This document shows, piece by piece, positions 1,851 to 22,854 of a DNA stretch of 32,000 bases. How positions within the stretch are numbered: the first letter of the stretch is position 1; each line of letters opens with the position of its first letter. The notes beneath the pieces were generated by a model that saw only the letters and a program-made list of their open reading frames with translations, was not told the DNA's origin and made no database searches. This DNA is from Nostoc sp. PCC 7120 = FACHB-418 (GTDB lineage: Bacteria > Cyanobacteriota > Cyanobacteriia > Cyanobacteriales > Nostocaceae), in assembly GCF_000009705.1 (NCBI RefSeq), contig NC_003272.1:1380001-1412000 (forward strand), written 5' to 3'. Position numbers and translations under genes: made by a program.

Positions 1851-4457
1851 CTAAAGCCAATTACCTACCAATACAAATGCTGACCAATAAAAAGGATGTT
1901 GGAAATCAGCGTTTTGCAAAAAAGTTAGTTGAGTTTGTCGTAATGCTTCTGCTTTGCTAATACCCGGCTGTCTGAGGTGTTTATAAAATTCCACCATAAA
2001 TTTAGCAGTAGACTCATCTTTTACTGACCAGAGAGTAGCTAGAGTGCTGCGCGCACCAGAACGTACTGCTACCCCAGCCAAGCCTAATATAGCTCGATTG
2101 TCTCCTTTTGCTGTTTGACAGGCACTGAGAACCATTAATTCTACTGGTGTAGATTGTGATTCGTTTCTGGCTTGCAGAAATTCACTCAATTTTTTCACAT
2201 TAATCTTTTCATTCCAACTAAGAATAAAAGTGTCATCAGACTGGCTACTAAACTGACCATGAGTAGCTAGATGTAACACCGAAAACGGTGTTGATTCTAT
2301 GGCTTGTTTGAGGTTGGTGTCGGTAAAATTTTCATTTAAAAGTAGTTTTGAAGAAACTTCCTCAGAAATTTCTGTTACTTCCGATTTAACTGCTGGTAAA
2401 GCTTTAAAGCCTTGGCGTGATTCACTCAGCGCAGCTGTCATCAATTTGAGATTTTCCCGTTTGAGCGATCGCGCTGGCATCAACTGCATCCCTGGAGATA
2501 TTGCTAAACTGTATTTCTCTAGCAAATACTGTTTGCCATCATGTAAAACTGCCATTGGGATATTGCGTAAAGAACCATCTAACACAAAAGCTAGTGTCTT
2601 GATTCCACTTTTGCTTAACTCAGATTCAAGAGGACGTATTAGCCAATCATAAAGTTTTCGAGAAACATTTAGCCTTTCCTCATTTGAGAAAATTGGGTTG
2701 AGAGATTGGCGTGTCTGTTTAATTATGTCTTCTATTTCTCTTGAAGATAGGACTGTTTTATAACTAGATAGGGGTTTGCCAGGAATAGATAGAATTACTT
2801 CTAAGCGATCGCCTAAAATAATCGGATAGATCACTGCTGCTTGTTTGTCGATTTGATCAATTTGCTCTGGTTTAGCGTTTAAACAAGCTTCCCGAAAGAA
2901 ATTATCTAACTCTGCTAATTGCAACGCTTCGATTGTCTCTCGTGCTAACTTTAAGTTTCTTTGACTAGGTTGGGGCGATTCTAGTAATATATCCACTAAC
3001 TCCCGATAAATTGGCTCCACACTCTCTTGAAAAGAAAACTGAACATTACGATTAATGGCTACTAAGTCACTACGCAGAGACTTGAGGGTTTTAACAGCAC
3101 TATCATAAGCTGCGATCGCACCCTGATTGTCACCTTGTTTTTTTAGAATACGCCCAACTTGCCAAGCCGCTTGATAACTAATATCACCAGCGTTAATCTC
3201 TTGAGTAATTTGTAGTGCTTTTTGGCTCAGTTTTAAAGCGTCAGCTAACTGCCGCTTCTCAAAATACAATTTTCCTAACTCATTTAAAGCATAACCTTGA
3301 GAGCGCAAATCACCCAGCATTTGAGCCTGCCGTAATGCACGGGCTAAAATTTGTGCTGATTCTTGATATGATACGGACTCATTGCCATCTAGCTTTGACA
3401 ATTTAGTAAAATTGTTGACAAAATTAATTGCTGCATAAACAGACAACCGACTTGGCGGTAGTTTCTCTAATTGCCACTTAATCTCTGATAACAAGGCCTC
3501 AGATGGTTTGTTTTTTCTAGTTTCTAAATAGAGACTAAGTTGATTCAACTGTGCATCTACTCGCAATTGAGAATTAGTTGTCTGAGCTACAACTTGTTGA
3601 TAATAATCAAAAGCTACCTCTATTTGTTGTAAATCTCTAGCCGTATTTCCCAGATTAAACAGAATATTGCTAATGTCTGTAGCGGAATTTAAGCCTTTAC
3701 TAATCTTTAAGCTCTGCTGTAAAATTTCTTGAGATTGTTGTATGTCTCCTACTAATTGAAAAGCAATTCCTAAGCTTTGTAATGCTTTTGCTTTAATAAT
3801 AGAATCTGGCTGATTTTGTAACTTTTGATGCACATCAACCAATAACTGCTGCCCTCTGCGATATAATCCTAAAGCTCGCATTGCTTGGGATTGGTTAATT
3901 TGACTACCTAGCTTTCCCACTTCATCACCAGCCACTGCATATGCACTTTCCGCATCTTGCCAAGCTGTTAAAGCTGCTTGTGCTTGTCCTGTTGAGAGTT
4001 TGAGATTACCTAGAGTATTCAGAGCTACTGCTAAGATGGCAGAGTTTCCTTGTTTCCGGACGTTGAGAGGTTTTAATATATTTAAGCTATTAATAATAGT
4101 AACTTCTGCGTTTTGCCAATCGCCTAAGTTTTGATGAGCCAAGGACAGGTAACTTAAACTCCAAGCTTCATTAATACTATCACCTTGGTTTTTAAAACCA
4201 ATATATGCAGCTTCCCAAAATTTCACAGCTTCAGTAAAGCGTCCAGACTCAAATAACTTCCTACCCTGATGCAGCTGATATTTGGGATTTGAAGAGTCAA
4301 TAATGGAGTATTGCCGTAAACTTGAATCTGCTTGCAAATTTAATTGTGATATCTGGCCTAGCTCCTGATTGGTCTGTGCCAATACTGCAAGATTTGTTGT
4401 TATTAAAAAGAAGGTTAGCCCTCCCAAAGAGACAGCATATTTAGTGAAATTCAGCAT
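1851..4457 (-). CDS. Sec-exported TPR-repeat CHAT-domain (caspase-like) protease
   Basis: 868-aa ORF. It has an N-terminal signal peptide (MLNFTKYAVSLGGLTFFLITTNLAVLAQ/T). About 500 aa of TPR-like helical repeats follow (e.g. AWSLSYLSLAHQNLGDWQNA, ALNELGKLYFEKRQLADALKLSQKAL). The C-terminal CHAT fold shows His and Cys dyad contexts VLHLATHGQF and LMVLSACQTAKG. Confidence 0.85.
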   Translation of the reverse strand: MLNFTKYAVSLGGLTFFLITTNLAVLAQTNQELGQISQLNLQADSSLRQYSIIDSSNPKYQLHQGRKLFESGRFTEAVKFWEAAYIGFKNQGDSINEAWSLSYLSLAHQNLGDWQNAEVTIINSLNILKPLNVRKQGNSAILAVALNTLGNLKLSTGQAQAALTAWQDAESAYAVAGDEVGKLGSQINQSQAMRALGLYRRGQQLLVDVHQKLQNQPDSIIKAKALQSLGIAFQLVGDIQQSQEILQQSLKISKGLNSATDISNILFNLGNTARDLQQIEVAFDYYQQVVAQTTNSQLRVDAQLNQLSLYLETRKNKPSEALLSEIKWQLEKLPPSRLSVYAAINFVNNFTKLSKLDGNESVSYQESAQILARALRQAQMLGDLRSQGYALNELGKLYFEKRQLADALKLSQKALQITQEINAGDISYQAAWQVGRILKKQGDNQGAIAAYDSAVKTLKSLRSDLVAINRNVQFSFQESVEPIYRELVDILLESPQPSQRNLKLARETIEALQLAELDNFFREACLNAKPEQIDQIDKQAAVIYPIILGDRLEVILSIPGKPLSSYKTVLSSREIEDIIKQTRQSLNPIFSNEERLNVSRKLYDWLIRPLESELSKSGIKTLAFVLDGSLRNIPMAVLHDGKQYLLEKYSLAISPGMQLMPARSLKRENLKLMTAALSESRQGFKALPAVKSEVTEISEEVSSKLLLNENFTDTNLKQAIESTPFSVLHLATHGQFSSQSDDTFILSWNEKINVKKLSEFLQARNESQSTPVELMVLSACQTAKGDNRAILGLAGVAVRSGARSTLATLWSVKDESTAKFMVEFYKHLRQPGISKAEALRQTQLTFLQNADFQHPFYWSAFVLVGNWL

Positions 4458-4525
4458 ATACTAATTTTTTATATAAATTTGACATCTACTAGTAACCTCG
4501 CCTGATTAGAAAAATTTTTAGTAAG

Positions 4526-5848
4526 TCACCTAACTGGAATTTCCATTAAAAATTCTGTGCCTTCACCTAATACAGAAAAACATTTTAATCTGCCATTGTG
4601 TTTCTCTTCAATAATTTGGCGGCTAATAGATAAACCAAAATTAGTACCTTTACCACTTGGTTTGGTGGTGAAAAACTGTTCAAATATCTGTTTTTGAGTT
4701 TCTACTGACATACCCAAACCATTATCTTTAAATGTAACTATTAGTAATTCTTCTTCTTGCTTCCATACAGTTTTGATGATAATTTTACGATTTTTATTGT
4801 CTTGAATATCTGCTACTTTGTGACATAACTCATCAATAGCATCAATAGCATTAGCAATCATATTCATGAAAACTTGGTTTATCTGCTCAGGATAACACTC
4901 GATTAGTGGTAAATTGCCATATTCTTTAATTACTTCTATGTCTGGACGTAGTTTATTACCTCTTAAGCGATGGGATAAAATTATTAAAGTACTATTGATA
5001 CCTTCATGGATATCAAAAAATGCTTTTTTAGATATATCTGAACCATAAAAATTGCGTAAACTATCACTAATATTATTAATTCTTTCTAATTCTGTATCGA
5101 TTGAAGTCATAACTTTTGGTATATCTATTAATATTTCATCTAGTTCTATTAGATTAGCATTTTTAGTAATATTTATAACTGGATGTGGGCAATGTTGATG
5201 ATAAAGCTGTAAATGCTGAGTTAAAGCATTTATATAATTACGAAGGAAGCCTAAATTACCCATCAAGGAGTTTAGGGGATTATTAATTTCGTGAGCGACT
5301 CCAGCAACTAATGCTCCCAGAGTGGATAGTTTTTCACTTTGGACTAACTGTAATTGAGATTGCTGGAGTTTATCCAAAGTTAGAGAGAGTGTTTGTGTCC
5401 GTTCTTCTACTAACTTATCAAGTTCTTGGTTTTTTATTTCTAGTTCTTTGGTTAAGAAGCTCAATTTTAAATGCACTTGGATTCTTACTAAAACTTCATC
5501 CAAATTAAAAGGTTTAGTGATATAGTCTACCCCACCTGTGACAAGAGCTAACACCTTATCAAATTGATCTGTAAGAGCCGTCAGAAAAATGACTGGGATA
5601 TCTTTAGTAGACGTTTTACTCTTGAGTTCTGCACAGGTTTGAAATCCATCCATTTCTGGCATCATCACATCTAACAAAATTATATCTGGTTGAGCATATT
5701 CAGCTTCTTCAATAGCACTTTCACCATCAGTTGCTATTAAAATTTCCCATCCTAAAGAAGAAATAGCATCTGATAAAACTTTTAAATTTGTTGGATTATC
5801 ATCCACAATTAATACTGTTGCTTTTTCAAAGCTATTAAAAATCTTCAT
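4526..5848 (-). CDS. Receiver-domain histidine kinase (REC-coiled coil-HisKA-HATPase)
   Basis: 440-aa ORF. The receiver shows [11 protein letters not shown], phospho-Asp context [16 protein letters not shown] and ITKPF. The H-box is [17 protein letters not shown]-binding motifs are [18 protein letters not shown] and [12 protein letters not shown]. Its ATG overlaps the upstream stop (ATGA at 5845-5848). Confidence 0.85.
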
Positions 5849-8613
5849 GATACACCAGCTTTTAAATATTTTATTAATGCGCGGATTTGTTTAATTTGAA
5901 AGCTATCGCTTAATTGTCTAACTTGTGTCACAAAGCCGATAAAATCACCATTTAAATCTAATTCTTCTATTTCATCCAATATTATGTGTATTCCTTTGAT
6001 ATTGCCTCTCATAGACAAATCCAATAGCTTATCAAGTTCTGATATTGGTGGTGCAACTATCAATTGATGATTATTATGTTGGGATGGTTGATTTTCAGAA
6101 ATTTTTGTTTGCTTGCTATCTTCTGCATAAATCCAATCGAGTTGTAAATAATCTTGTAAATACTTGAGTAATTTATCAAGTTCTAAAGGTTTTGGTAAAA
6201 ACTCAGTTCCTCCTATTTGCAAACTTTTGTTTTTATCACTTTCAAACACACTAGCAGAAGAAACAAAAATGGGAACTTTGGATATTTGAGGTAAACTTCT
6301 TATGGTTTGGATCATTTCAAAGCCATCTATAACTGGCATGGCTAAGTCAGTAATAATCAAATCAGGCTCATTTGTTGCTGCTATATTTAATCCTTCTTGT
6401 CCATTAGCAGCTTCAAGGCATTCAAAACCAATTGGTCGCAGGAAATTACAAATTATGGCACGATTTTCCCATTTGTCATCTACAATTAGAACTTTTGGCT
6501 GTTTGTCTTGAATACCGATAATTTTTTTCTTCTGTAGTACACTAGATGTTTGTAACCAGTGACTGATAATATTTAAATTTAAATCTAGCCAGAATTTACT
6601 ACCAGTTCCCAAAATGCTATCTACTTGGATTTGGCTGCCCATTAATTCAGCAATTCTACAGCTAATAGCTAACCCTAATCCCGTACCTTCTGCTTGTTTA
6701 TTTTTATCTCCTACTTGCTCAAAAGGTAAAAAAATCTTTGTCAATTGTTCAGGAGTCATTCCCACTCCTGTATCTTCCACTTGAAATCTAATTTTGTTGA
6801 AATCGGCTCCAGCTTCTAAGACTTGTATTGTGAAATTGACTCCACCTGTCTCAGTAAACTTAATCGCATTACCAAGTAAATTAATTATTATTTGTCGTAG
6901 CCGTTTTTCATCTGCATTAATTGCTTGAGGGAGATCGGGATCTGGTAGGTAATGAAAAGAGATACCTTTTTGTAAAGCACGGATACGACACATTTCTACT
7001 ACTCCCGTAAGGAAGTAAGAAAAATCAAAATCCGTATTGTGTAATTCCAGTTTTCCCGCCTCGATTTTGGACAAGTCTAAAATATCGTTGATGAGAATGA
7101 GGAGGTGAGAACCACACTGATGAATAATATTAATGCCCTCTAATGCTGCGGGTGCTATGTTTTCAGAGCGTTCTAGGATTTGTGCGTATCCTAAAATCCC
7201 ATTGAGAGGTGTCCGCAACTCATGACTCATGCTTGCTAAAAATTCACTTTTAGCTTGGTTGGCGACATCAGCAGCAATTTTGGCGGTTTCTAACTCTTGG
7301 GTACGATCGCGCACTTTTTCTTCTAAGGTGCGAGAATAATCTTGGAGTTGCTGGTTAGCTTTTTCTAATTGTGATTGTTTATACAGATTAGTAGTGACAA
7401 TTGTAGACAGAAAAGTTGTTAACAGTGGTGACATTACAGGAATCCACCAACCAATCATAAATGCAGCATAGCTACTGCCGAAGATTATACTTATACTCAA
7501 TAAAATCACCAGAATCGGCCATCCTGGTAAAGACTGTTTGCGCTGAGAGTTGACTTGTAACCCATGCCAGGTCACACCACTACTGACAAAAGACCAACAA
7601 AATACCAATAGCCACTCTGCTGGCTCAGGCCAAACTCGCAACAATGGCCTACCATCAAGAGCAGCACTTAAAATTTGGCTGACTAAATTGGCATGAACTA
7701 CTACCCCAGCCATGCGTCTTTCTTCATCCTGCACATTGCGGCTGTAACCAACGTTCACAAAATCATTAATACTCTTAGCTGTAGTTCCAATCAAAACAAT
7801 GCGATCGCGTATTAATTCTGATGATATAGAATCACTAAGGATATCCCGCATTTTCACCGTGTCAAAATTATCTTGAAAACCACGGTAATTTAACAGAATT
7901 TGGTATCCTCCAACATCTGTACCTCGATAACTAAATTCTTCACCAGTCAAAGGTGTAAATATTGCTTTCCCTAGCCGCAAAGAAGTGCCAGTTGGATCTA
8001 GTTCCTCTAAAGCAATACCTTTACTTTGAAGATACATCAGACTTAAGTGAGGTGCTAATCCTAAAAAAATTTTCTCCTTACTATCACCAGCAGATAATAA
8101 CCCACGCCTAACTTTACCATCTGTGTCCACGACTAAATCAGCTAGTGCAATTTGACCTAGTTCAGATAAGGTAGGTGATGGAGCAACTTGATCCCCTACT
8201 AATTTTTTGATTCCAATTAAATTAGGCGTAGATTTAATCACTCCCAGAAATTCTTGATGACCTGGTTCTACTGGCAAATCTCGATAGATATCCAAGCCTA
8301 TAGCTGCTGGTCTTTGTGCCTTTAGTTTGATGATCAGCTTGGCTAAAATAAGGTCAGGAATAGGCCATTTGCCAATTTGAGTGATGTCTTGTTCATCAAT
8401 AGTAACGATTAAAATCCGTTTGTCTATTGATTCATTAGGACGTAGAGCATAATATTGCTCCATCGTGTTCCATTCCAGTAGTTGAAATAACCCCGCCATT
8501 CCTCCAGTCATGACGCATATTGCCACGACTGGAGCTGTCATGAATATACTGCGCCAATCTTGGAAACATACCTTGTGTATATAGCCAATAATTGTTTTTA
8601 CAGATGACCTCAT
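5845..8613 (-). CDS. CHASE2-domain hybrid sensor histidine kinase (CHASE2-TM-HisKA-HATPase-REC-helical tail)
   Basis: 922-aa ORF. An N-terminal TM helix is followed by a CHASE2-like periplasmic region ([22 protein letters not shown]...[10 protein letters not shown]...). Hydrophobic helices follow ([49 protein letters not shown]). The H-box is [15 protein letters not shown], with [18 protein letters not shown] and [12 protein letters not shown]. The receiver shows [11 protein letters not shown] and [15 protein letters not shown]. Confidence 0.85.
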
Positions 8614-8680
8614 TAGGTGTTTGTATTCAAGATGAAAAGTTGTGTAATATGAGAAGCATAAATAGTTATTTTTAGAGCAG

Positions 8681-8709
8681 AAGCATGAGTGAAAATTATT
8701 CTCATGCTT
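8681..8709. other. 9-bp stem hairpin in the DUF928/CHASE2 intergenic spacer
   Basis: AAGCATGAG (8681-8689) is the exact reverse complement of CTCATGCTT (8701-8709), with an 11-nt loop. A T-rich run follows only on the plus strand, which is antisense to the operon. Confidence 0.3.
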
Positions 8710-8744
8710 TACTATTTTCTTGCTCTTATGTTGTCTAGTTTTGC

Positions 8745-9464
8745 TTAATTGGTAAGAGGTACTTCAGCGAGCGCACTCAAATCAACAGACCTTAATAGTT
8801 CTTGCCAAGAAGTAGTTATAGTTGGATTATTTGGTTGTGTTCTCTTTAATTCGGCCAGAGTTGCCAGCGAATCATACCAGATGCCCATATTAGCTAACTT
8901 AGATGCTAATTGCACAGTAGGTTGATTATTGAAATTGCGATGAGATTCAACTCGACGAATCCATCCACTTACCCAAGGACTATCCGGCTCTAATTCTTCA
9001 GTACAAATCATCACTAAAGACCATTGATAATTCTGACCTATTTTGAGTGCTGACACTGAACTAGGAAGCTTAATTTCTATCACCCCAGGTTTCTTAGACA
9101 GGTGTAAGATTCTCTGGTAAGATTGCTTTCCTCGTTCATCTTGCAGAGCAAAAAGTGCTGTTTTAGCATTCGTTTGCGGAACATAAACAAATATTGTCGG
9201 ACGCTCCGCTACTGTCAAACCGATATTAGTTTTTGGTAATAGTGGTGTAACTGAGGCTTGAATAGTTGCGCTCATATCAGCACCGCAAGTAGAAGCATCA
9301 CGAGATGCTCCTCCAATTGATTTTTTTGGAGCCTGTGCTTTAGGTGGTCTGAAAGTTACCTGACCCATACTGGGTGTAATGCCAATGGGAATCGAGGACA
9401 AAGAAATTAACCACAAAATTACCAATAACTTGCGTGGGAAAAGATATTTATTTTCTCTTGCCAT
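8745..9464 (-). CDS. DUF928-family secreted protein
   Basis: 239-aa ORF. The N-terminus is hydrophobic and signal-like ([23 protein letters not shown]). The family-typical layout as I recall it is present: F-x-PP...AP....GGxSR....C ([24 protein letters not shown]), then [32 protein letters not shown]...VSGWIRRVE, and the C-terminal [15 protein letters not shown]. Confidence 0.8.
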
Positions 9465-10041: not shown

Positions 10042-11310
10042 ATGAACTGCAAGACGTATAAAAAAATACATATAACTCCATCTCATCAAACCACCCAAAT
10101 TACTCTGCATACGGCAAAACCACTCTTAGCTTTAGCCACATTGATAGGATCTGCTATTCCTGCTCAAGCCATCACATTTAACTTTACCTATCAGCCAGGA
10201 ATCACACAGGAACAGATTGCAGCAGTTGAGTTAGCAGGAAGTATTTGGTCTGCTTACTTACAAGATATAGATGTTGTGGTCAACGTCCATGTCGAGATGA
10301 CCGAAGGCGTTTTAGCTGAGGGTAAATTGGGCGGTGCAACCCCAGCGATTAAAAAGATCAACTATGACAAGTTCAAAGAAGGTTTGGGTGCAGATGGTAC
10401 AGCTAATATCCATCAGTTGCCAACTTCTACCCACAGCAGTGATAAATATAGAACTAGACTAACAGGCGGCATCATCAATAGTAGTAACTATGAACTTCTG
10501 ACAACTACAGCCAATAATAAAGCCCTCGGTAATGACTTGAGTGGCGATGCTTCTGGATTAGATGGCTATATTCAATTAGAAAAATCAGTTAATTGGAGTT
10601 ACAGGCACGCTGGGGGCAAAGTTGGACACAACCAATATGATTTTGTCAGTGTAGCTATCCACGAAATTGGGCATAGCTTGGGTTTTATTAGTGGTATTGA
10701 TGCTTTGAGTGGTTTAGCTTTACCTACTGCTCTTGATATGTTTCGCTACTCTACCGAGAGTGCCAGCCAAAGAGCAATTGACTACACAGTTGGTGGAACT
10801 AAATACTTCTCAATCAACGGAGGGCAAAATCCGTTTAACTTTACTCAAATAGAAAAAAACGCCCCCAATGTATACCAAGCAATCTTTTCTACTGGCGAAA
10901 ATACCCTCTTGGGAGGTGATGGGGAGCAGGCTAGTCACTGGAAAAGAAATAGCCAACCCTATTTAGGGATTATGTCCTCAACTATCAGCATGGGAGGAAT
11001 TAGAAAAATTTCCAAACTGGATCTCGCTGCCCTCGATTACATTGGTTGGCAGGTTGATTATTCCCCAAAAATTAATTTGCCTGCCTTATCCACGAATGCC
11101 CAAACTAAAGCACAAAAAATTTGGGAGTCACAATTCGATAGTAATACAAATAACGATGCCATCCGCGATCGCTCTTCTGATGTACAGCAAATGATGCAGG
11201 AAAGTGGGATTTATAACTGGGGCTGGAATGGATATTGGCAAACAGCCAATCCTACTCCATCATCACAAGTACCTATTTGTTCTCACACAAAAGAACAGGG
11301 CAATAAATAA
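10042..11310 (+). CDS. Secreted HExxH zinc-metalloprotease-like protein (HExxHxLGF type), paralogue A, without PEP-CTERM
   Basis: 422-aa ORF. The signal-like N-terminus is LLALATLIGSAIPAQA. The conserved N-block is ITFNFTYQPG. The catalytic-type motif is AIHEIGHSLGFISGID (10660-10686). It also has DMFRYS, GGDGEQASHWK and the C-terminal Trp-rich block YNWGWNGYWQ. It is a clear paralogue of 12022..13587. Confidence 0.75.
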   Translation: MNCKTYKKIHITPSHQTTQITLHTAKPLLALATLIGSAIPAQAITFNFTYQPGITQEQIAAVELAGSIWSAYLQDIDVVVNVHVEMTEGVLAEGKLGGATPAIKKINYDKFKEGLGADGTANIHQLPTSTHSSDKYRTRLTGGIINSSNYELLTTTANNKALGNDLSGDASGLDGYIQLEKSVNWSYRHAGGKVGHNQYDFVSVAIHEIGHSLGFISGIDALSGLALPTALDMFRYSTESASQRAIDYTVGGTKYFSINGGQNPFNFTQIEKNAPNVYQAIFSTGENTLLGGDGEQASHWKRNSQPYLGIMSSTISMGGIRKISKLDLAALDYIGWQVDYSPKINLPALSTNAQTKAQKIWESQFDSNTNNDAIRDRSSDVQQMMQESGIYNWGWNGYWQTANPTPSSQVPICSHTKEQGNK

Positions 11311-11457: not shown

Positions 11458-11808
11458 ATGTCTTCAAATTGTTTGAAATTACTTCCTTGGTTCGGATGGC
11501 TTACACCCTTAACGTTAGCTGCTTCAATAGTCATAATTAGTAATACTTCAGCCCAAGAATTGCAATTTAATTCCACTTATGAAACAGCGACAACCATAGA
11601 CCAAATGCTCGGCGATGAAATGGCTAGTAGGGATTTGTCAAATTACCTAGCCGATAATGTCACCGTGATTCCTATCAATAACAATGGAAATGGCGATCGC
11701 GGTGAATCGTTAAACCAAACGATCAGTAGCAGTAGTCTTTACGCCTGGGATTGGTGGGATTGGTGGCGTGGGAATGGCTATTGGAATGACAAGGGTTGGG
11801 ATTGCTAG
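11458..11808 (+). CDS. Internally deleted metalloprotease paralogue: signal peptide and N-terminal block fused in frame to the Trp-rich tail, with no catalytic domain (possibly a gene remnant)
   Basis: 116-aa ORF. LQFNSTYETATTIDQMLGDEMASRDLSNYLADNVTV aligns with LQFNFTYAPGTTLDQMLGYEMAGKYWSNYLADDVTV of the downstream gene. NNNGNGDRGESLNQTISSSSLYAWDWW aligns with NNNGYDDRGESLNQMINSSGTYNWGWN. DNA-level similarity is visible by eye. There is no HExxH. Confidence 0.55.
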   Translation: MSSNCLKLLPWFGWLTPLTLAASIVIISNTSAQELQFNSTYETATTIDQMLGDEMASRDLSNYLADNVTVIPINNNGNGDRGESLNQTISSSSLYAWDWWDWWRGNGYWNDKGWDC

Positions 11809-12021: not shown

Positions 12022-13587
12022 ATGAATAAAAATATCAATTACAGGCAAAATAAATCTCTTGGCTTAATCAAGCTAATTACACCTCTAACATTGGCTGGTT
12101 CTATGGTTATGGTGGGTAGTATATCAGCCCAAGCATTGCAATTTAATTTCACCTATGCACCAGGGACAACCCTAGACCAAATGCTCGGTTATGAGATGGC
12201 GGGTAAATATTGGTCAAATTATTTAGCCGATGATGTCACGGTCAATATCTTTATTGAGCCGACAAATAAGTTACCTACTAATGTCATTGGTGGGGCAATA
12301 CCAGGGGTGACTTCGCAAAACTTTAGCACTGTTTATCAAAAGCTGCAAACAGATATCACCTCAACTAGCGATCACATAGCTTTAAATAGTTTATATAACC
12401 AATGTCAGACCAGCCTTACCTTTAGCAATGGATGGTTTCAGAATCAATGCACAGGATATAAATCTTTAACGAATACCTATAAAAATGGTCTAACTAACTT
12501 AGATATTCACTCCGATGTCAAAAAGATCAATCTCACTCGTGCTAATGCCAAAGCTTTAGGAATGATTAGTGCTAATGACCCTGGTTATGATGGTTATATT
12601 CTCGTGAGTAACTTAAGCAATATTGCTAGGCCTCTGTCATGGAATTATTTTTCTGCCACCAATACCAGTAGTACTATTCCTAACGCCACTCTAGACTTTT
12701 TCACTGTGGCGGTACATGAACTGACTCACACCCTCGGCTTTATCAGTGGTATAGACTTACCTGAATACCAAGATTTATTGACAAAAAAAACATGGTTAAC
12801 CAGTGATGATATGTCTAAATATGGCTACCTGATGGATATGTTTCGTTTATCTGAGAATAGCCGCTTTTGGAATAGACCTGATATATCCGTTGGTGTAGAT
12901 ACGATGTTATCTCTTGATGGTGGTATGACCAAGTTAGGTAATATGTCTTCTGGAAGTACCAAATTTGGAGGAGATGGTAATCAAGGTAGTCACTGGAAAA
13001 AAGACGCTACCTATGATGGCATTATGGAGTCTAGTTTGGGTGCAGGCGGTACGAGAAAATTTGTGACCAATAATGATCTGACTACTTTAGATATCTTGGG
13101 GTGGAATCTACAGCAGAACAATCAAGACCTACTCAGCACTTTCAATAGTGCTAAATCTGGACTGGCTACTAAGATGGGAGTTACTACCAGTTGGATGGAT
13201 GACAACCCTACTCAAGCAGCTTTACTGCTAACACCACAATATATCGATGCTAATAACAATGGCTACGATGATCGCGGTGAATCCTTGAACCAGATGATCA
13301 ATAGCAGTGGTACTTATAACTGGGGTTGGAATGGTTATTGGTGGGGTTGGAATGGCTATTGGTGGGGTTGGAATGGCTATTGGCAAACTACGGACAATTT
13401 AACCACAGATGGCTTTTGGCAAAATTTCGCTTGGGAAACACTGGATGAGTATGAACATGGCGACCATGACTATTTAAGTGGGTCTTCTCAGTCCCAATCT
13501 GTACCAGAACCCACTACTATCTTTGGATTATTTGGCATAGCCATAATGGGCATTGCTACAAAGCTCAAGCGTCGTTGTGAATATTAG
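12022..13587 (+). CDS. Secreted HExxH zinc-metalloprotease-like protein (HExxHxLGF type), paralogue C, with a C-terminal PEP-CTERM sorting signal
   Basis: 521-aa ORF. The signal-like N-terminus is LTLAGSMVMVGSISAQA. It has LQFNFTYAPG, AVHELTHTLGFISGID (12714-12740), DMFRLS, GGDGNQGSHWK and the triple GWNGYWW. The C-terminus VPEPTTIFGLFGIAIMGIATKLKRRCEY (13501-13587) is VPEP plus a hydrophobic helix plus a basic tail, which is a PEP-CTERM architecture. Confidence 0.8.
   Translation: MNKNINYRQNKSLGLIKLITPLTLAGSMVMVGSISAQALQFNFTYAPGTTLDQMLGYEMAGKYWSNYLADDVTVNIFIEPTNKLPTNVIGGAIPGVTSQNFSTVYQKLQTDITSTSDHIALNSLYNQCQTSLTFSNGWFQNQCTGYKSLTNTYKNGLTNLDIHSDVKKINLTRANAKALGMISANDPGYDGYILVSNLSNIARPLSWNYFSATNTSSTIPNATLDFFTVAVHELTHTLGFISGIDLPEYQDLLTKKTWLTSDDMSKYGYLMDMFRLSENSRFWNRPDISVGVDTMLSLDGGMTKLGNMSSGSTKFGGDGNQGSHWKKDATYDGIMESSLGAGGTRKFVTNNDLTTLDILGWNLQQNNQDLLSTFNSAKSGLATKMGVTTSWMDDNPTQAALLLTPQYIDANNNGYDDRGESLNQMINSSGTYNWGWNGYWWGWNGYWWGWNGYWQTTDNLTTDGFWQNFAWETLDEYEHGDHDYLSGSSQSQSVPEPTTIFGLFGIAIMGIATKLKRRCEY
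13321..13383 (+). repeat. 3 x 21-bp perfect-phase tandem repeat encoding (W)GWNGYW
   Basis: The units are TGGGGTTGGAATGGTTATTGG (13321-13341), TGGGGTTGGAATGGCTATTGG (13342-13362) and TGGGGTTGGAATGGCTATTGG (13363-13383). Copies 2 and 3 are identical and copy 1 differs by one T/C. Confidence 0.95.
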
Positions 13588-13789: not shown

Positions 13790-16342
13790 ATGGTGATTTT
13801 ACAACAAACAAAAATATTATTTTTTTTTACCTTTTGTCTATTTCTAGAAACACCTTTAAAGGCATTAGCACAGACTCAACTTAATCCTGATAACACATTG
13901 CCCACTAATGTGAATAATATTGGTGGTGGTGTGTACGATATTACTGGCGGTGCTAGACCAAATAATGGTGCTAATCTTTTCCACAGTTTCCAAGATTTTG
14001 CGATTCGATCAGGTGATACTGCCAGGTTTATTTATGATACAGGGATTAACAATATCATCACACGGGTTACGGGAGGGTCGCCTTCCCAAATTAACGGAAC
14101 TATTCAAACACTTCTCAATGGCACTAACAATATAGGCAATGCCAATTTATTTCTGATCAATCCTTATGGAATCATCTTTGGTGCTAATGCCAAATTAGAT
14201 ATAGGTGGCTCATTTATTGGTACTACAGCAGATAGCATCAAATTCACTGATGGGACAGAATTTAGTGCTACTAACCCCACCGTTAACCCAATTCTTACTG
14301 TTAGTGTACCTCTCGGCTTGCAATTTGGTTCTCATCCCACCAGCACCATTCAAGTACAAGGTTCAGGCAACAATTTAAGGCTCAACCCCGATTTTTCTAT
14401 TGATAGCAGGAACCGTCCACCAGGATTGAGCTATAAAACCCCAAATGGTCAGACTTTAGCACTAATTGCAGGCAAGGTAGAACTAGATGGAGGAAATATT
14501 ACTGTACCCCAGGGAAGAGTTGAATTATGGTCTGTGAATCAAGGTGAAGTTACAATTACCAATCCTAGTGGACAGCTACAACTACAACCCACACCAGGAA
14601 TTAGTTATGGTAATGTTAACCTTCTGAATGCTGCCTCTGTAGATACTAGTGGGAATAGTGGCGGTATTATCCAGGCACGAGGGCAAAATGTGACTCTCGA
14701 AAACGGCTCAGTGATAGTTACAGATACCATCGGTAATGGTTCTGGAGGAATATTGAATATCTCTGCATCTGAGGCGTTGACTATTAAAGGCTTTGTCCTA
14801 AATCCTAATAACCAGGTATCTAGCAGCATACTAGCTGATGTTGGCTCAGGTGCAAGTGGAGAGGGAGGTAAAATCAGCATTAGCACGAAAACCTTACAAG
14901 TGAGCAATGGGGGTCAAATTTCGAGCGGTACTTTTGGGACTGGAAACGCTGGAGAATTGAATGTTACAGCTCAGGATGTGCAGGTAAGTGGTATTTCTCC
15001 CTTCGGTCCGAGTGGTTTATTTGCTCCTGTTGCTCCTGGTGCAAGAGGAAACGGGGGTAGCTTAGGAGTTGAAACTAAGAAATTACAAGTTACTGATGGC
15101 GGACAGATATTCACCACTACCTATGGGTTTGGCCAAGCTGGTGATTTGAAAATCCTTGCTGAAGATGTGGAAGTTATTGGTGGGACACAATTTGGCCCTA
15201 GTATTATTGCCGCTACAACCATAAAACTATCAGCAATTCCAGAGCCAATAGCCACTTTTTTAGGTGCTGGTTTTGGTACAGGCGGTAATTTAATGATTGA
15301 AACCAATAACTTACGAGTTGCTGATGGGGGTCAGATTGCTGTTAGTACATCTGGGAATGGCTCGGCTGGTAACATGACGATTACTGCTAACTCGGTAGAA
15401 TTGACAGGTACTAATCAACTTGGTCGTAGTGGGTTATTCGCTAACGCTATTGTTGGTACTGGTCAAGGTGGCGATGTCAATGTGAGTGCTAATCGCTTAG
15501 TGGTTCGTGATGGTGCAACTATCAATGTCAGTAATTTACTCAGTCGAGACCCACAAAATCTGCTGGGTTTAGCTGGTCAAGGGGCGGCTGGAGATATCAC
15601 ACTTGATTCTGCTGATATTTTACTAGCAAATCAAGGGATAATTACTGCTGATACTAATGCCGGAGATAAAGGCAATATTACGATTCAATCGGATACTTTG
15701 CAAATGCTGCGCGGTAGTCAAATTAGCACCAATGCCCGCAATAGTGCAGTTGGGGGAAATATTAACATCACTACGAATACTTTAGTGGCTTACGAGAATA
15801 GTGATATTACCGCTAATGCTCAACAAGGTTTTGGGGGTAGGGTGGTTGTCAATGCCAAAGGAATTTTTGGGATTCAATTTCGTCCCCAACCGACTCCATA
15901 CAGTGATCTGACGGCTTCTTCTGATTTGGGTGCGGAGTTTCATGGTACCGTAGAATCGAATACGCTAGATGTTGATCCTACTAGCGGATTAGTGAAGCTA
16001 CCAACTAATTTTAGCGATCGCTCACAGCAGATAGCCAGTGGTTGTAGTACAACGCAACAGAATCGTTTTGTTGTTAGCAATCGTGGCGGATTACCTGCCA
16101 ATCCTACTGATACCGTCAGAGGTGAGATAGTTTGGTATGATGTCCGTGATTTATCAAATGAAGTAGCTAACTCAACAGCAAGCAGTAACTATCAAACTGC
16201 TAGTAATCAACAACCAATTGTTGAGGCTCAAGGACTAATTGTTAGTGCAGATGGTACAATACGGCTACTAGCATCCATCCCCACGGTAACGCCTCTTACT
16301 CCGTGGCAAGTATCACCTTCATGTAATGTTAAACCATCTTAA
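13790..16342 (+). CDS. Two-partner-secretion exoprotein (TpsA-like; filamentous-haemagglutinin N-terminal domain plus beta-helix repeats)
   Basis: 850-aa ORF. The signal peptide is FFFTFCLFLETPLKALAQ/T. TPS-domain motifs are YDITGGARPNNGANLFHSFQDF, ITRVTGGSPSQINGTI and ANLFLINPYGIIFG. Gly/Asn/Thr-rich repeats recur as L-x-V-x-DGGQI...G-x-G-x-AG-x-L. The C-terminal block is SGCS...NRFVVSNRGGLPANP...SPSC. Confidence 0.85.
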   Translation: MVILQQTKILFFFTFCLFLETPLKALAQTQLNPDNTLPTNVNNIGGGVYDITGGARPNNGANLFHSFQDFAIRSGDTARFIYDTGINNIITRVTGGSPSQINGTIQTLLNGTNNIGNANLFLINPYGIIFGANAKLDIGGSFIGTTADSIKFTDGTEFSATNPTVNPILTVSVPLGLQFGSHPTSTIQVQGSGNNLRLNPDFSIDSRNRPPGLSYKTPNGQTLALIAGKVELDGGNITVPQGRVELWSVNQGEVTITNPSGQLQLQPTPGISYGNVNLLNAASVDTSGNSGGIIQARGQNVTLENGSVIVTDTIGNGSGGILNISASEALTIKGFVLNPNNQVSSSILADVGSGASGEGGKISISTKTLQVSNGGQISSGTFGTGNAGELNVTAQDVQVSGISPFGPSGLFAPVAPGARGNGGSLGVETKKLQVTDGGQIFTTTYGFGQAGDLKILAEDVEVIGGTQFGPSIIAATTIKLSAIPEPIATFLGAGFGTGGNLMIETNNLRVADGGQIAVSTSGNGSAGNMTITANSVELTGTNQLGRSGLFANAIVGTGQGGDVNVSANRLVVRDGATINVSNLLSRDPQNLLGLAGQGAAGDITLDSADILLANQGIITADTNAGDKGNITIQSDTLQMLRGSQISTNARNSAVGGNINITTNTLVAYENSDITANAQQGFGGRVVVNAKGIFGIQFRPQPTPYSDLTASSDLGAEFHGTVESNTLDVDPTSGLVKLPTNFSDRSQQIASGCSTTQQNRFVVSNRGGLPANPTDTVRGEIVWYDVRDLSNEVANSTASSNYQTASNQQPIVEAQGLIVSADGTIRLLASIPTVTPLTPWQVSPSCNVKPS

Positions 16343-16559: not shown

Positions 16560-18374
16560 TTAAAAAGGATTATAAACCAGCGAAAAATATAATCCATTCT
16601 CTTGCCAGGTTCTGGCTTGTGAATCAACGGATACTAAAGGAATACCCCAATCAAGACGGGCGCTAAAGCGATCGCCTTGTGACCAGCGCAAACCCAGACC
16701 AATCGACGCTAGGGTATTAGGGTCTGGAGTCTCCCGATAGTTATTCCAGGCAACACCAAAATCTACAAAAGGGGTGACTTGTAACAGACCATCGGACTGG
16801 GATAATCGCAGAATCGGTATTTGCACCTCAGCTGAAGCAAAAGCGCCATTATCGGTTAGTAGAAAATCTTGCCGATAACCCCGGACACTATCTAAACCAC
16901 CCAAACCAAATTGTTCCAAAGATAATAGCCCTTTGGATGCTATCTGTGTATTAGCTTTGACAATTAATAAGGTTTCTGGAGCCAGAAGACGCGCCCATTG
17001 AGCTTGTCCCTGCCAAGAAAAAAAGCGACTATCGGGAGGCTCGGCATTAACTGTGGCGTTTAATGCACCTATACCCAAATTAAATTGCGATCGCACTGCA
17101 AAAACTTGCCGACTGTTACGAGTAGTCCATTCCTGAAAGAAACGCAACGCAGATATCCTGGTGCGTCCCTGATCATCAGCACCAGGGGAAAGCACACTAG
17201 GCGGTAAACGAGGTTCTTCGTTGAACAGTGAGGAATATATTTCACTTTCTCTCCGTGAGGCTGTCAAACCAATGGCGAATTCTTGGCTAGGAGATTGAGC
17301 TAATGGTTGACGATAGGTGATTTCGTAGTAGCGAGAGGAAGACTGGATATCGAGAGTATTAAAAGGTTCTTCAATCACATTGCTGGATGCAGTACCAAAA
17401 TTAAAGCTGATTGTGCCGTTGCGGGGATTTAATGGCAAGGTGTAACTGGTATCAAAGGTGTTACTACCATCAGTATTACTATAAGCTAAACTGATGTTGT
17501 CACCTAACCCCAGCAAATTAGCTTCATTTAATTGTACTCGGCGGCGAAAACTCCCGACTCCAGGCGATCGCCCATTATCTAAAGCTAACTGAGCATGAAA
17601 AGATTTTGCTTCTGTGATTTGTACCTGTAGTACACTCGTCCCTGGACGAGAACCTGCTGAAAGTTCAGCAGAAAGATTTTGAATCAACGGATTGAGTTGT
17701 AATAATTGTAGCGCTTCTAGTAAACTCTCGCGGTTGAGGGGGGGTTTTGTAGCGATCGCCAACCGACTGCGGACATAATTAGGTTTGAGTCGCCGATTTC
17801 CAGTAATTTGAATGTCTTCTAACCTACCTTCCACCACCTGAATTTTAATGACACCAGATTTAATAGTTTGCGGTGGGATATAAGCACCAGAAGTAATGTA
17901 ACCTTTATTGACGTATAATTCGGTAATTTTAGAACGAGCTTGAAACAGTTCTGCTAATGTAATAGGTCTTTTGGTAAACTCAGTGGTAACCTTGGCTAAC
18001 TCTTCCTGACTAAACACTGTACTGCCAACAACTTCAAACCTTTCTACTGTGATAGTTTGCGGCGCATTTTCCGGTACTTGTTGCTGTGGGTTAATGTCGG
18101 GAGAAGACGGTTGGAGTAGTTCTCCAGGTGGCGGTAATTGCTGTGGCTACTGGGGAGGAGGTAAAGGAGCAGGTGCAGGTGGTTGAATATCTTGAGGCTG
18201 AGGCAGTGCTTGTGTCGAATTACTATTTGGTAGTTGCGTCCGATCAACAGCTTGAGCGTTCACAGGTAGAAAATCTATGCTGTTGAGAGATAATAATATA
18301 CTCAACGGCAACCAAGAAACTGCAAGCTTTGGGTGGCTATACATCATGCTAATAAGTTGTTTATTTGCCAACAA
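16560..18374 (-). pseudogene. ShlB/FhaC/HecB-family TpsB outer-membrane transporter interrupted by one in-frame TAG (18147-18149)
   Basis: Track ORFs 18147..18374 and 16560..18017 are in the same frame ((18146-18017) = 129 = 43 codons). The first is a signal peptide (LAVSWLPLSILLSLNSIDFLPVNAQA) plus a Pro/Gln-rich linker. My translation across the gap has no further stop: ...APLPPPQ*PQQLPPPGELLQPSSPDINPQQQVPENAPQTITVERFEVVGSTVFSQEELAKV. The POTRA-like ITVERFEVVGSTVFS is followed by a beta-barrel ending ...GLYFSLVYNPF. Confidence 0.75.
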
Positions 18375-18518: not shown

Positions 18519-18595
18519 TTGACCAATGACAACTGACAACTGACAACTAACAACTGACAACTGACAACTAACAACTGACAACTAACTATTGACTC
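18519..18595. repeat. STRR-like tandem heptanucleotide array (about 11 units, consensus CTGACAA / CTAACAA)
   Basis: Phased by hand: TTGACCA ATGACAA CTGACAA CTGACAA CTAACAA CTGACAA CTGACAA CTAACAA CTGACAA CTAACTA TTGACTC. The last units overlap the stop and final codons of the oxidoreductase gene. Confidence 0.9.
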
Positions 18596-21546: not shown

Positions 21547-22854
21547 TTAAAGATTATCTTTGCAGACTTCAAAATGTCCCAATCTCTTAAAAGTAGCTAT
21601 AGGCAATCGTACACTTACTATAGTACCTTTCGCTATATCAGACTCAATAGATAGTTTTCCATAATGAGCATGGATGATGCGTTCGGCAATGGCAAGTCCT
21701 AAACCAGTACCATGAGGTTTTGTAGAAAAGAATGGCTGAGTTAATTTTGATAAAATCTCTGGGGGAATTGGTTCGCCGCCATTACAGATATTTATACATA
21801 CTTGATCTGGCAATGAAACGTCCACTTCCCATTTAACAATATCTCCGTCTGCAATCACCTCACAGGCATTACAGATAATATTAATAAAAACTTGTTTTAG
21901 CTTATTTTCATCTGCTAAGATTTTCACCGGATTTGATGATGGAATAAATTCGATTTTACGTGAGATTGCTTCTGGCATTTCATATACCAATACAAGTAAC
22001 TCACTAATAAATTTGTTGACTTCTAATTCACATATTTGTAAAATTTGAGGTTTTGCATAAAGCAAGATTTCACTTAGTAGATTGTCTAGGCGGTAGGCTT
22101 CACTAACTGCTAAGGATAATCGCTCTTGAGCAGCTGATGACAAAATTGTTTTTTGAGAATATTTCAATCCCATGATCATTGTAGTTAAGGGATTGCGGAT
22201 TTCATGCACAATCATGGCAGCAAATTCACCCATAACTGCCAGTCTTTCCTTTTCTAGAAGCTTGCTTTGTGTCGCTTTTAATTCTGCCGTACGTTTTTCT
22301 ACTTCCGCTTCCAGAATATGATTAAATTGGCACTGCTGCTTGTATAAACGATAATTATCAATGGCTGTAGCAGCACGTTCAGCCAATAGTTCTGTAAACT
22401 GGATTTCTTCTGGACTAAACTCTCGTGATTCGTGATGAAATGAGCAAATAGTGCCAATTACTTCGCCTTCGGCAGTCCGCAACGGTATCCCTAAATAAGC
22501 TCGATAACCTTCTGGAGGCTGACCATACTCTGGGTGCTTACTAGTATCTTCTACTACCAAGGAGTTACCAGTTTCTATAACAGTGTTAGTTAGGGAACCA
22601 TGTAATGAATAAACGTGTTCACCTACACCTATATTAATACTACTTGCTAGGACTTTCTCAAATCCTTGTTGACACAATGTGACTACTGACCAGTCTACAT
22701 TTAGTAACTGACTAACTCCACAGGCAATGTTAAACAGATAGCCGCTTAGTTCTCCAGTCCGATAGTTTAAAGATGATAAAAGAGCGATCGCCAGACGCTC
22801 ACGTTGCCACATTTGATTTTGCAATAAAATTCCATCATCAATGGCCTTAACCAT
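21547..22854 (-). CDS. GAF-domain sensor histidine kinase
   Basis: 435-aa ORF. The GAF-like region is VVEDTSKHPEY...AYLGIPLRTAEGEVIGTICSFH. The H-box is AMIVHEIRNPLTTM. ATP-binding motifs are FINIICNACEV and [12 protein letters not shown]. Confidence 0.85.
   Translation of the reverse strand: MVKAIDDGILLQNQMWQRERLAIALLSSLNYRTGELSGYLFNIACGVSQLLNVDWSVVTLCQQGFEKVLASSINIGVGEHVYSLHGSLTNTVIETGNSLVVEDTSKHPEYGQPPEGYRAYLGIPLRTAEGEVIGTICSFHHESREFSPEEIQFTELLAERAATAIDNYRLYKQQCQFNHILEAEVEKRTAELKATQSKLLEKERLAVMGEFAAMIVHEIRNPLTTMIMGLKYSQKTILSSAAQERLSLAVSEAYRLDNLLSEILLYAKPQILQICELEVNKFISELLVLVYEMPEAISRKIEFIPSSNPVKILADENKLKQVFINIICNACEVIADGDIVKWEVDVSLPDQVCINICNGGEPIPPEILSKLTQPFFSTKPHGTGLGLAIAERIIHAHYGKLSIESDIAKGTIVSVRLPIATFKRLGHFEVCKDNL

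Follow-up and report, generated by a model that had tools for sequence, protein, structure and literature searches.

How does a bacterial signalling locus report to the cell when it encodes two histidine kinases and an exported protease, with no recognisable DNA-binding output? The question is raised by all1179, all1178, all1177 and all1176, four co-directional minus-strand open reading frames (ORFs) of Nostoc sp. PCC 7120 that lie within a 32,000-nucleotide stretch of its chromosome (1,380,001-1,412,000; hereafter the window, to whose positions all coordinates refer unless stated otherwise). They encode in turn a DUF928 protein (all1179, 8745..9464, 239 amino acids (aa), Pfam PF06051), a CHASE2 hybrid histidine kinase (all1178, 5845..8613, 922 aa), a kinase with receiver, HisKA and HATPase domains (all1177, 4526..5848, 440 aa) and an exported TPR-CHAT protease (all1176, 1851..4457, 868 aa), the last three likewise assigned with Pfam. 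With a probability of about one in two, we propose that this four-gene set represents one copy of a cyanobacterial cassette for cell-envelope signalling, modular in build, in which DUF928 would serve as partner or pro-ligand of the CHASE2 sensor and the CHAT protease would act either on DUF928 or on a nearby surface protein of the TpsA type.

The gene layout is compact. The intergenic gaps are 131 bp (all1179/all1178), -4 bp (all1178/all1177) and 68 bp (all1177/all1176), and the overlap is an ATGA at 5845-5848, read directly in the sequence, that joins the stop codon of all1178 to the start of all1177. The five window proteins that were looked up are identical to PCC 7120 entries (BAB73133-36 and BAB73141), All1179 being BAB73136; All1178 is Q8YXN4. 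A Pfam scan found neither a helix-turn-helix nor any other DNA-binding domain in the four proteins. An earlier description made from these letters without database searches, here called the sequence-only reading, had given the same co-directional arrangement, gaps, overlap, domains and lack of DNA-binding output, and all of these were borne out; the minus strand is to be added to it. It had also treated the four genes as a unit, a view that the comparison with other cyanobacterial loci upholds.

That comparison rests on three sets of loci. A DUF928-seeded scan of one genome per species gave 80 loci, of which the 47 with at least 7 kb on both sides were used for counts; a CHAT-seeded metagenome scan gave another 80, of which the 28 with at least 4 kb on both sides were counted; and look-ups were seeded with four arbitrary CHASE2 proteins carrying other outputs. 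In these loci, ORF calling was purely mechanical, and the ORFs were labelled with the domains of the window proteins and with hidden Markov models built from first-round matches; some labels of non-cyanobacterial metagenome-assembled genomes (Gracilibacteria, Tatlockia) may reflect mis-binning. Around DUF928, CHASE2 was present in 43/47 loci, TPR-CHAT in 36/47 and TpsA in 19/47. Around CHAT, the corresponding figures were 25/28 for DUF928, 24/28 for CHASE2, 20/28 for TpsA and 7/28 for its transporter TpsB. Each of the four CHASE2 seeds had DUF928 12-25 bp upstream, with TPR-CHAT before DUF928 in three and TpsA in two. Well over 100 independent loci retain the arrangement, and such conservation rules out chance co-location of the four genes.

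The usual gene order is [TpsB] TpsA, TPR-CHAT, DUF928 and CHASE2-X, where X is the cytoplasmic module of the receptor; Nostocales, including the window, have DUF928, CHASE2-kinase-receiver, receiver-kinase and TPR-CHAT, with TpsA divergent. The enzymatic variants of X comprise kinase-receiver (accompanied by a receiver-kinase gene), PAS-adenylate cyclase, GGDEF, GGDEF-EAL and SpoIIE/PP2C, and further CHASE2 proteins carry an N-terminal Ser/Thr kinase, AAA_35 ATPase or cytoplasmic CHAT domain, or no enzymatic module at all. Because the cytoplasmic module varies and the periplasmic set is constant, the common function should be extracytoplasmic. On this comparison of gene contexts, the conserved unit is the extracytoplasmic set of DUF928, CHASE2, TPR-CHAT and TpsA, and the cytoplasmic transmitter is interchangeable. 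The phrase 'phosphorelay without DNA-binding output', used in the sequence-only reading, thus describes the Nostocales version of the output and fails as a definition of the system, since the cytoplasmic module is exchanged freely.

The components occur in a nested fashion, in that TpsA is hardly ever seen without CHAT and CHAT seldom without DUF928 and CHASE2. By gene context, the strongest link is that of DUF928 with the CHASE2 sensor domain, which the sequence-only reading had overlooked. The DUF928 gene adjoins CHASE2 regardless of the transmitter attached, and every copy of the cassette has a DUF928 gene of its own, for which reason we regard DUF928 as the probable cognate partner of its CHASE2 neighbour. 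Tandem cassettes of two copies are found in comparison loci L003 and L122. In Trichormus variabilis, a close relative of PCC 7120, a second cassette lies next to psaB (L164:2255-7935) and consists of TPR-CHAT (868 aa), DUF928 (239 aa) and a CHASE2-adenylate cyclase (644 aa), the latter two genes being separated by 12 bp; PCC 7120 probably carries a paralogue of this type too. Multiple copies with different outputs are as expected for cognate partner pairs.

DUF928 is a large family, with 7048 representatives at E<=1e-3 in a library clustered at 50% identity, and All1179 matches positions 2-184 of the 184-position model PF06051 with E = 2.7e-57 (193.9 bits). In the AlphaFold2 model, with a predicted local distance difference test score (pLDDT) of 82, it consists of a signal peptide (aa 1-34), a disordered tail (aa ~34-66), an immunoglobulin (Ig)-like beta-sandwich of seven strands (aa ~70-171) and three C-terminal helices (184-225). 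Foldseek returned weak and generic matches to Ig-like or carbohydrate-binding-module (CBM)-like sandwiches, at a template-modelling (TM) score of about 0.3 relative to the query, and a function derived from the fold was therefore dropped. The conserved feature of the tail is a 22-residue unit (9285..9362, minus strand, coordinates checked) that starts right behind the predicted signal-peptidase site and opens the predicted mature N terminus. Its pattern is F-x-P-P…A-P…G-G-A-S-R, followed by Cys, in a region of low pLDDT that is accordingly taken as disordered. GGASR is encoded at 9300-9314 and its Arg, R55, at 9300-9302 (both minus strand); among 76 homologues R55 is invariant and G51, G52, A53, S54 and C60 are at least 90% conserved. 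The Arg is also kept in the motif variants GGTHR, GGGSR, GAGSR and GAAGR. The strict pattern GG[AGS]SR occurs in 46/117 DUF928 ORFs vs 2/1944 unlabelled ORFs; hardly any match lies outside DUF928, and the idea of a motif common to other cassette proteins was rejected on that count.

The unit can be repeated. It stands in tandem two to five times in 12/165 DUF928 ORFs, and at least 13 times in one; the unit of the latter, at L145:7204-8877 (+), reads GDV(Q/E)F(A/S)LPGGSAPRSGVAGGTR. The DUF928 proteins of L053, L122, L124, L141, L148 and L161 have four to five copies, each ending in GGASR. Tandem tail repeats were seen only in loci that carry CHAT, and each of the 36 loci with CHAT has just one DUF928 gene; arrays of several DUF928 genes, of the Microcoleus type, were seen at nine loci, only where no CHAT gene is near by. 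Together these patterns suggest a functional connection between DUF928 and CHAT. In Microcoleus and other Oscillatoriales (L043, L045-L049, L051, L052, L055, L056, L058-L061 and L063), arrays of two to five DUF928 paralogues stand beside a divergent CHASE2 gene whose product has no enzymatic domain and a Pro/Gln/Glu-rich C terminus; CHAT and TpsA are absent within 10 kb, and the tail motif reads GGTHR or GATHR.

The protease of the window, All1176, looks active and exported, as judged from its sequence. Pfam assigns it TPR families and a CHAT domain (PF12770, E = 3.5e-64; 217 bits, the cut-off being 24). On the minus strand, the signal peptide is encoded at 4377-4457, the TPR region at ~3048-4286 and the CHAT domain at 1860-2666, and the presumptive catalytic residues, with coordinates checked, are His733 in HLATHG (2259-2261) and Cys780 in LSACQTA (2118-2120). 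This dyad is 100% conserved in 45 CHAT orthologues, alongside many other CHAT residues; the sequence-only reading had named its loss in orthologues as grounds for giving the idea up, and no such loss is seen. By inspection, all 45 orthologues also have an N terminus like an export signal, in which a basic n-region leads into a hydrophobic stretch and a small-x-small site follows, and some look Tat-like with an RR-x-F-L motif (e.g., L070). In the window, N termini with the n-h-c pattern of a signal peptide were recognised in DUF928, CHAT, TpsA and two neighbouring metalloproteases, in agreement with the earlier suggestion that protease and DUF928 are both exported. In a sequence-profile search, the TPR half is closest to peptide-binding TPRs, LGN/Pins being the best matches in the Protein Data Bank (PDB). 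The CHAT half alone has no PDB match at E<=1 in a sequence search, and the 60 best matches listed for the full-length profile are all TPR proteins; the plan to read the S1 pocket off a solved CHAT homologue was dropped, as none was found by sequence in the PDB. Cleavage behind Arg is common among peptidases of clan CD, such as metacaspases, separase, gingipain R and clostripain.

CHASE2 was defined in 2003 and is present on many bacterial kinases, cyclases and cyclic di-GMP (c-di-GMP) enzymes. All1178 has the layout of a CHASE2 receptor, with CHASE2 (PF05226, E = 4.8e-62, 210 bits) between an N-terminal transmembrane helix and a transmembrane bundle, and with HisKA, HATPase_c and Response_reg downstream. 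On the minus strand, Pfam places the periplasmic CHASE2 domain at 7582-8526, HisKA at 7054-7254, HATPase at 6574-6912 and the receiver at 6157-6492. In the AlphaFold2 model (pLDDT 89), helices 2-39, 330-358, 365-386 and 394-413 are consistent with one plus three membrane segments, the first at aa ~22-44 and the other three within aa 330-413. The CHASE2 model has no fold match in the PDB by Foldseek (best E = 0.28), on which ground an inactive caspase-like fold that would pair with CHAT was rejected. The last ~75-100 residues (aa ~845-922, ~5848-6081, minus strand, from the alignment) form a conserved domain with the signature F.PF…VRQLADNFQ.KQIR.LIK that follows the receiver in all CHASE2-kinase-receiver orthologues. 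It shows no Pfam match and, in the alignment, no conserved His, and its identity as a histidine phosphotransfer (HPt) domain was rejected for these two reasons; it could serve to dock All1177 or represent an HPt that has degenerated.

All1177 comprises Response_reg, HisKA and HATPase_c in Pfam, and a gene of its type is kept directly behind the CHASE2 kinase in ~35 loci of Nostocales, Moorena and others. Both kinases have the H-box His and both receivers the acceptor Asp, and an HPt domain was found in neither; direct transfer from the All1178 kinase to the All1177 receiver may occur.

The last component is the two-partner secretion (type Vb) system. The TpsA-type exoprotein of the window (13790..16342, plus strand, 850 aa; Pfam TPS E=7.5e-65, TIGR01901) is built of a TPS secretion domain, beta-helix repeats and a conserved C-terminal module with two Cys residues (C…F-V-V-S-N-R-G-G-L-P…IVEAQG…C); this module is conserved in 49 cassette TpsAs as C…F-x-V-T-G-R-G-G-L-P…W-x-D-x-R…IVEAQGW…C. 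The naming of both DUF928 and TpsA as candidate substrates has held up, as each of them shows linkage to the present CHAT subfamily across cyanobacteria. Convergent to TpsA lies a TpsB/ShlB-type Omp85 transporter (16560..18374, minus strand; Pfam ShlB, POTRA_2, Omp85), whose reading frame is interrupted. Its signal peptide and Pro/Gln linker (18150-18374) are split by an in-frame TAG (18147-18149) from the ORF for the POTRA domain and barrel (16560-18017). Translation in the same frame gives …LPPPQ*PQQLPPP… in the linker, where orthologues read PQQLP. The 100-bp stretch around the TAG is identical in two related assemblies, other Nostocales orthologues are intact at 572-644 aa, and the PCC 7120 lineage thus probably carries TpsB as a nonsense pseudogene.

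We tentatively propose the following scheme for how such a cassette might work. From outside to inside, its parts would be the TpsA surface protein, secreted via TpsB, the periplasmic TPR-CHAT protease, the periplasmic DUF928 protein and the inner-membrane CHASE2 receptor. DUF928 would be a dedicated periplasmic ligand or pro-ligand of the neighbouring CHASE2 sensor, and a physical interaction between the two seems likely to us from their constant adjacency. The Arg-ending unit or units of its tail may be the element recognised by the TPR groove of the protease, by the sensor or by both, a disordered, N-terminal, repeatable and Arg-ending tail beside a protease with peptide-binding TPRs being what would be expected of a recognition or cleavage element. 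CHAT would then cut DUF928, most likely behind the invariant Arg. That DUF928 is cleaved by CHAT is a tentative proposal drawn from these sequence patterns; that the Arg is the P1 residue, by analogy with other clan CD enzymes, is more tentative still. Cleavage would translate what happens at the surface or in the periplasm, perhaps with TpsA as its reporter, into an altered activity of the receptor. The nesting of the components and the outside-to-inside gene order suggest a place for CHAT between TpsA and DUF928, and a role of TpsA as the upstream input, for which gene context speaks, is rather doubtful. In the window, the All1178 kinase would pass phosphate to its own receiver, to that of All1177 or to both, and the All1177 kinase to a response regulator encoded elsewhere.

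Several points weigh against this scheme. All of its mechanistic steps are deduced from gene context and sequence features, and the export signals were judged by eye from the n-h-c pattern. Promoter-like and terminator-like consensus sites near the four genes are no more frequent than expected from shuffled sequence and do not bear out co-transcription. The tail motif is kept in the Microcoleus-type loci that have DUF928 arrays and CHASE2 with no CHAT within 10 kb, and it may thus serve binding or docking to CHASE2 instead of cleavage. A role as a pure 'peptide precursor' would leave the strongly conserved folded body of DUF928 unexplained. Finally, if TpsA is the input, the broken TpsB gene means that the PCC 7120 copy of the cassette may be crippled.

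Among the alternatives is control of an adhesin as in the Lap systems of Pseudomonas. CHAT would cut the Cys-bracketed C-terminal module and so free a TpsA anchored in the TpsB pore, TpsA taking the place of DUF928 as main substrate, and the CHASE2 protein together with DUF928, as adaptor or inhibitor, would sequester or release the protease as LapD does LapG; the flow of information may then be inside-out. Outside the Nostocales, most loci have TpsA immediately upstream of CHAT, which it also accompanies in most CHAT-seeded ones, the two-Cys module with its GRGGLP motif is common to the cassette TpsAs, and CHASE2 partners without enzymatic output, or with N-terminal ATPase, kinase or CHAT modules, would suit inside-out signalling. 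However, 16/47 full DUF928 loci have CHAT and CHASE2 with no TpsA within 10 kb, which ties CHAT closer to DUF928 and CHASE2, and most CHASE2 partners carry classic transmitters (kinase, cyclase, GGDEF) that favour outside-in flow. The Arg-ended repeat units of DUF928 are left without a role, and Pfam and NCBIfam detect no LapG or LapD homologue among the cassette proteins. We consider adhesin control of this kind unlikely.

A second alternative is that DUF928 is a co-receptor that is not cleaved, its sandwich binding an envelope or external molecule and docking on CHASE2 in the manner of LuxP-LuxQ or TorT-TorS, with CHAT having a separate job such as the turnover of stalled TpsA or of the neighbouring metalloproteases of the NF038122 family. 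The direct adjacency of DUF928 to CHASE2 irrespective of output would fit, as would the Ig/CBM-like sandwich with its weak Foldseek matches to carbohydrate-binding modules and the retention of the tail motif in Microcoleus-type loci without CHAT. Those structural matches are weak, however, at the TM score quoted above, and the mutual occurrence of CHAT and DUF928 in both seeded scans is too tight for an unrelated job. The confinement of arrays to loci without CHAT, and of tail repeats to loci with it, also suggests that the two proteins are functionally connected. On balance we would not expect a co-receptor independent of CHAT.

A bolder form of the cleavage scheme would make DUF928 the precursor of periplasmic signalling peptides, CHAT cutting behind the Arg of each 22-residue unit and the released peptides acting as CHASE2 ligands. 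The number of units would be one here and would reach 13 or more in some homologues, as in a pro-hormone polyprotein. We think this distinctly improbable; if true, filamentous cyanobacteria would possess numerous private channels, each pairing a peptide with its receptor, which might extend along the periplasm that is shared within the filament, and TpsA and TpsB would gate the protease from the cell surface. Least of all can we credit a Craspase-type or gasdermin-type partner-activated CHAT protease, that is, a defence or cell-death effector acting on a substrate encoded in cis, for which the TPR-CHAT architecture, the intact dyad and one weak PADLOC match of the CHAT catalytic region to BovA (E=3.7e-5), in cassette results that are otherwise receiver and TPR noise, can be cited, whereas the window has no CRISPR-like or tandem array, no PADLOC Cas match, no ORF of Cas7-11 size (the largest is 922 aa, and all large ORFs belong to other families), no gasdermin or Csx30-like neighbour and no gasdermin family in Pfam scans of its ORFs, the protease shows no match to solved CHAT structures in the PDB searches described above and looks exported where those systems are cytoplasmic, and the partners conserved with it comprise a sensor domain and a secretion system instead of defence genes.

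Returning to the proposed DUF928-CHASE2-CHAT cassette, the surroundings of the four genes add some detail. Divergent from DUF928 is an exported metalloprotease of the NF038122 family (10042..11310, plus strand, 422 aa; NCBIfam E=7.4e-65, weak Peptidase_M10), and a second member with a PEP-CTERM sorting tail follows at 12022..13587 (plus strand, 521 aa; NCBIfam E=2.8e-69, Pfam PEP-CTERM). Between them is an internally deleted paralogue remnant of 116 aa (11458..11808, plus strand), whose aa 7-70 correspond in BLASTP to aa 11-74 of the 521-aa protein (59% identity) and aa 71-92 to aa 408-429; the short ORF is also present in related strains. Members of the family were found again in 17 cassette loci, and TpsA is present in 16 of these. 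In the PEP-CTERM metalloprotease gene, a 21-bp tandem repeat of three copies (97% match, 13321-13383) encodes a W/G-rich stretch before the sorting tail, and between the TpsB and an oxidoreductase gene the heptamer TGACAAC is repeated eight times (18527-18583), resembling the short tandemly repeated repetitive (STRR) sequences of heterocystous cyanobacteria.

On the other side, after a gap of ~617 bp 3' of the CHAT gene, lies an FHA-GAF-GGDEF-EAL protein (1-~1233, minus strand) that extends past the window start and is all1175 by position. The sole DNA-binding response regulator of the window, of OmpR type (26796-27482, plus strand), is 17 kb away near a HAMP histidine kinase (23811-25229, plus strand), with which it probably pairs, and a GAF histidine kinase at 21547-22854 (minus strand) is unrelated to the cassette. 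Elsewhere, Nodularia sp. UHCC 0506 has a protein in which CHASE2 is fused to an N-terminal CHAT domain that is presumably cytoplasmic (L076:7314-9833, plus strand), next to a DUF928 without the usual Arg motif, an exported TPR-CHAT, TpsB and a 1724-aa TpsA. In Calothrix and Tolypothrix loci (L012-L029, L062), a gene for an ABC-type ATPase (232-281 aa) shares the strand of DUF928 and stands directly upstream of it, at ~0.2-1.3 kb; its membership in the cassette was rejected, as it is restricted to the Calothrix-type lineage.

As for signals in the DNA, the consensus scan called no terminator-like site in the two intergenic gaps of the four-gene set, and NtcA-box matches at the locus are at chance level. 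The 131-bp gap between all1179 and all1178 contains an 8-bp inverted repeat, AGCATGAG…CTCATGCT, with an 11-nt loop (8680-8712, minus strand). There is no T-run behind it and the terminator scan made no call; it could tune read-through from the DUF928 gene into the kinase genes. A 26-nt repeat resembling the box of AzuR (SmtB/ArsR) has been placed inside all1178 at chromosome position 1386159 (PMC8790569). It corresponds to an imperfect 12-2-12 inverted repeat at window positions 6159-6184, in the receiver-coding part of the gene, and the agreement in position confirms the gene as all1178; as a regulatory box the repeat is probably fortuitous.

The cassette is widespread in cyanobacteria and apparently undescribed. 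A search of one literature library found no paper linking CHASE2 with 'CHAT domain', none linking 'CHAT domain' with two-partner secretion or filamentous hemagglutinin, and no mention of all1176, all1177 or all1179. All1178 has been detected by proteomics in the Anabaena exoproteome, where it drops ~450-fold on furC overexpression, with its function stated to be unknown (PMC10936207). One paper of that library mentions the DUF928 family, with a brief remark on its having CHASE2 as a neighbour in N. punctiforme (PMC5587647), and a 2023 study of a CHASE2 diguanylate cyclase controlling motility and biofilm stated that the ligands and partners of CHASE2 were unknown and to be sought (PMC10581220). 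A dedicated DUF928 protein and protease beside CHASE2 receptors of every output class provide a specific hypothesis for what CHASE2 responds to, and DUF928, a family of unknown function with more than 7000 clusters at 50% identity, gains a signalling context. The scheme we infer, a periplasmic accessory protein and a protease controlling a transmembrane sensor, draws on families not previously connected. If true, it would include the first CHAT or caspase-like protease in periplasmic transmembrane signalling, as opposed to cytoplasmic defence or cell death. The cassette also ties type Vb secretion to second-messenger and phosphorelay signalling in cyanobacteria, and so touches the poorly understood control of surface sensing, motility and biofilms in these organisms.

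The proposed scheme displays individual features of several known systems. The succession of a hybrid kinase with a receiver and a receiver-kinase, without a DNA-binding domain, recalls the LvrA/LvrB phosphorelay of Leptospira; the NCBIfam LvrA and LvrB models match All1178 and All1177 far below their curated cut-offs, so these are not orthologues, and the cassette differs in its CHASE2 input and in that an HPt with a conserved His was not found. Craspase (type III-E Csx29) is a TPR-CHAT protein with its substrate encoded alongside, and CHAT or caspase-like proteases activate bacterial gasdermins. With these All1176 has in common the order of TPR and CHAT, the His/Cys dyad and the idea of a substrate next door. 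It differs in its apparent export and in lacking CRISPR/gRAMP, Csx30 and gasdermin partners, its gene neighbours being a kinase and the FHA-GAF-GGDEF-EAL protein, and no sequence similarity beyond the Pfam domain was detected. The analogies to Craspase and gasdermins drawn in the sequence-only reading thus reduce to a common architecture, the compartment and the neighbours being different.

Another comparison is with CpxP/DegP/CpxA and ExoR/ExoS-ChvI, in which a small periplasmic protein acts on a sensor kinase and is removed or processed by a periplasmic protease, whereby the sensor is switched. The likeness lies in a small periplasmic protein that is encoded with, or acts on, the sensor kinase. 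The families are unrelated, however, and the cassette protease is dedicated and encoded in cis; DUF928 has tandem Arg-ended units, and the cassette serves cyclases, c-di-GMP enzymes and phosphatases as well as kinases.

A precedent for the sensing of a protein by CHASE2 is provided by the adenylate cyclases CyaD1, CyaD2 and CyaK of Sinorhizobium meliloti, which answer a protein signal and need NsrA, a beta-barrel protein of the outer membrane (PMC13001267). There, DUF928, CHAT and TpsA are unreported, NsrA is not a TpsB, and the signal is a host protein. A further comparison is with the LapD-LapG-CdrA/LapA systems of Pseudomonas, in which LapG releases the TpsA adhesin CdrA under the control of LapD; both there and here, a periplasmic cysteine protease is combined with an inner-membrane signalling protein and a nearby surface protein of the TpsA type, and in both the principle would be a controlled proteolysis within the periplasm (PMC4694147, PMC5231407). 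The likeness is one of function, with no homology between the two, as the cassette protease is a CHAT enzyme of clan CD instead of the bacterial transglutaminase-like LapG and the receptor is CHASE2 instead of LapD. The cassette further adds an obligatory DUF928 protein, and its varied transmitter modules suggest that signalling runs from the outside in.

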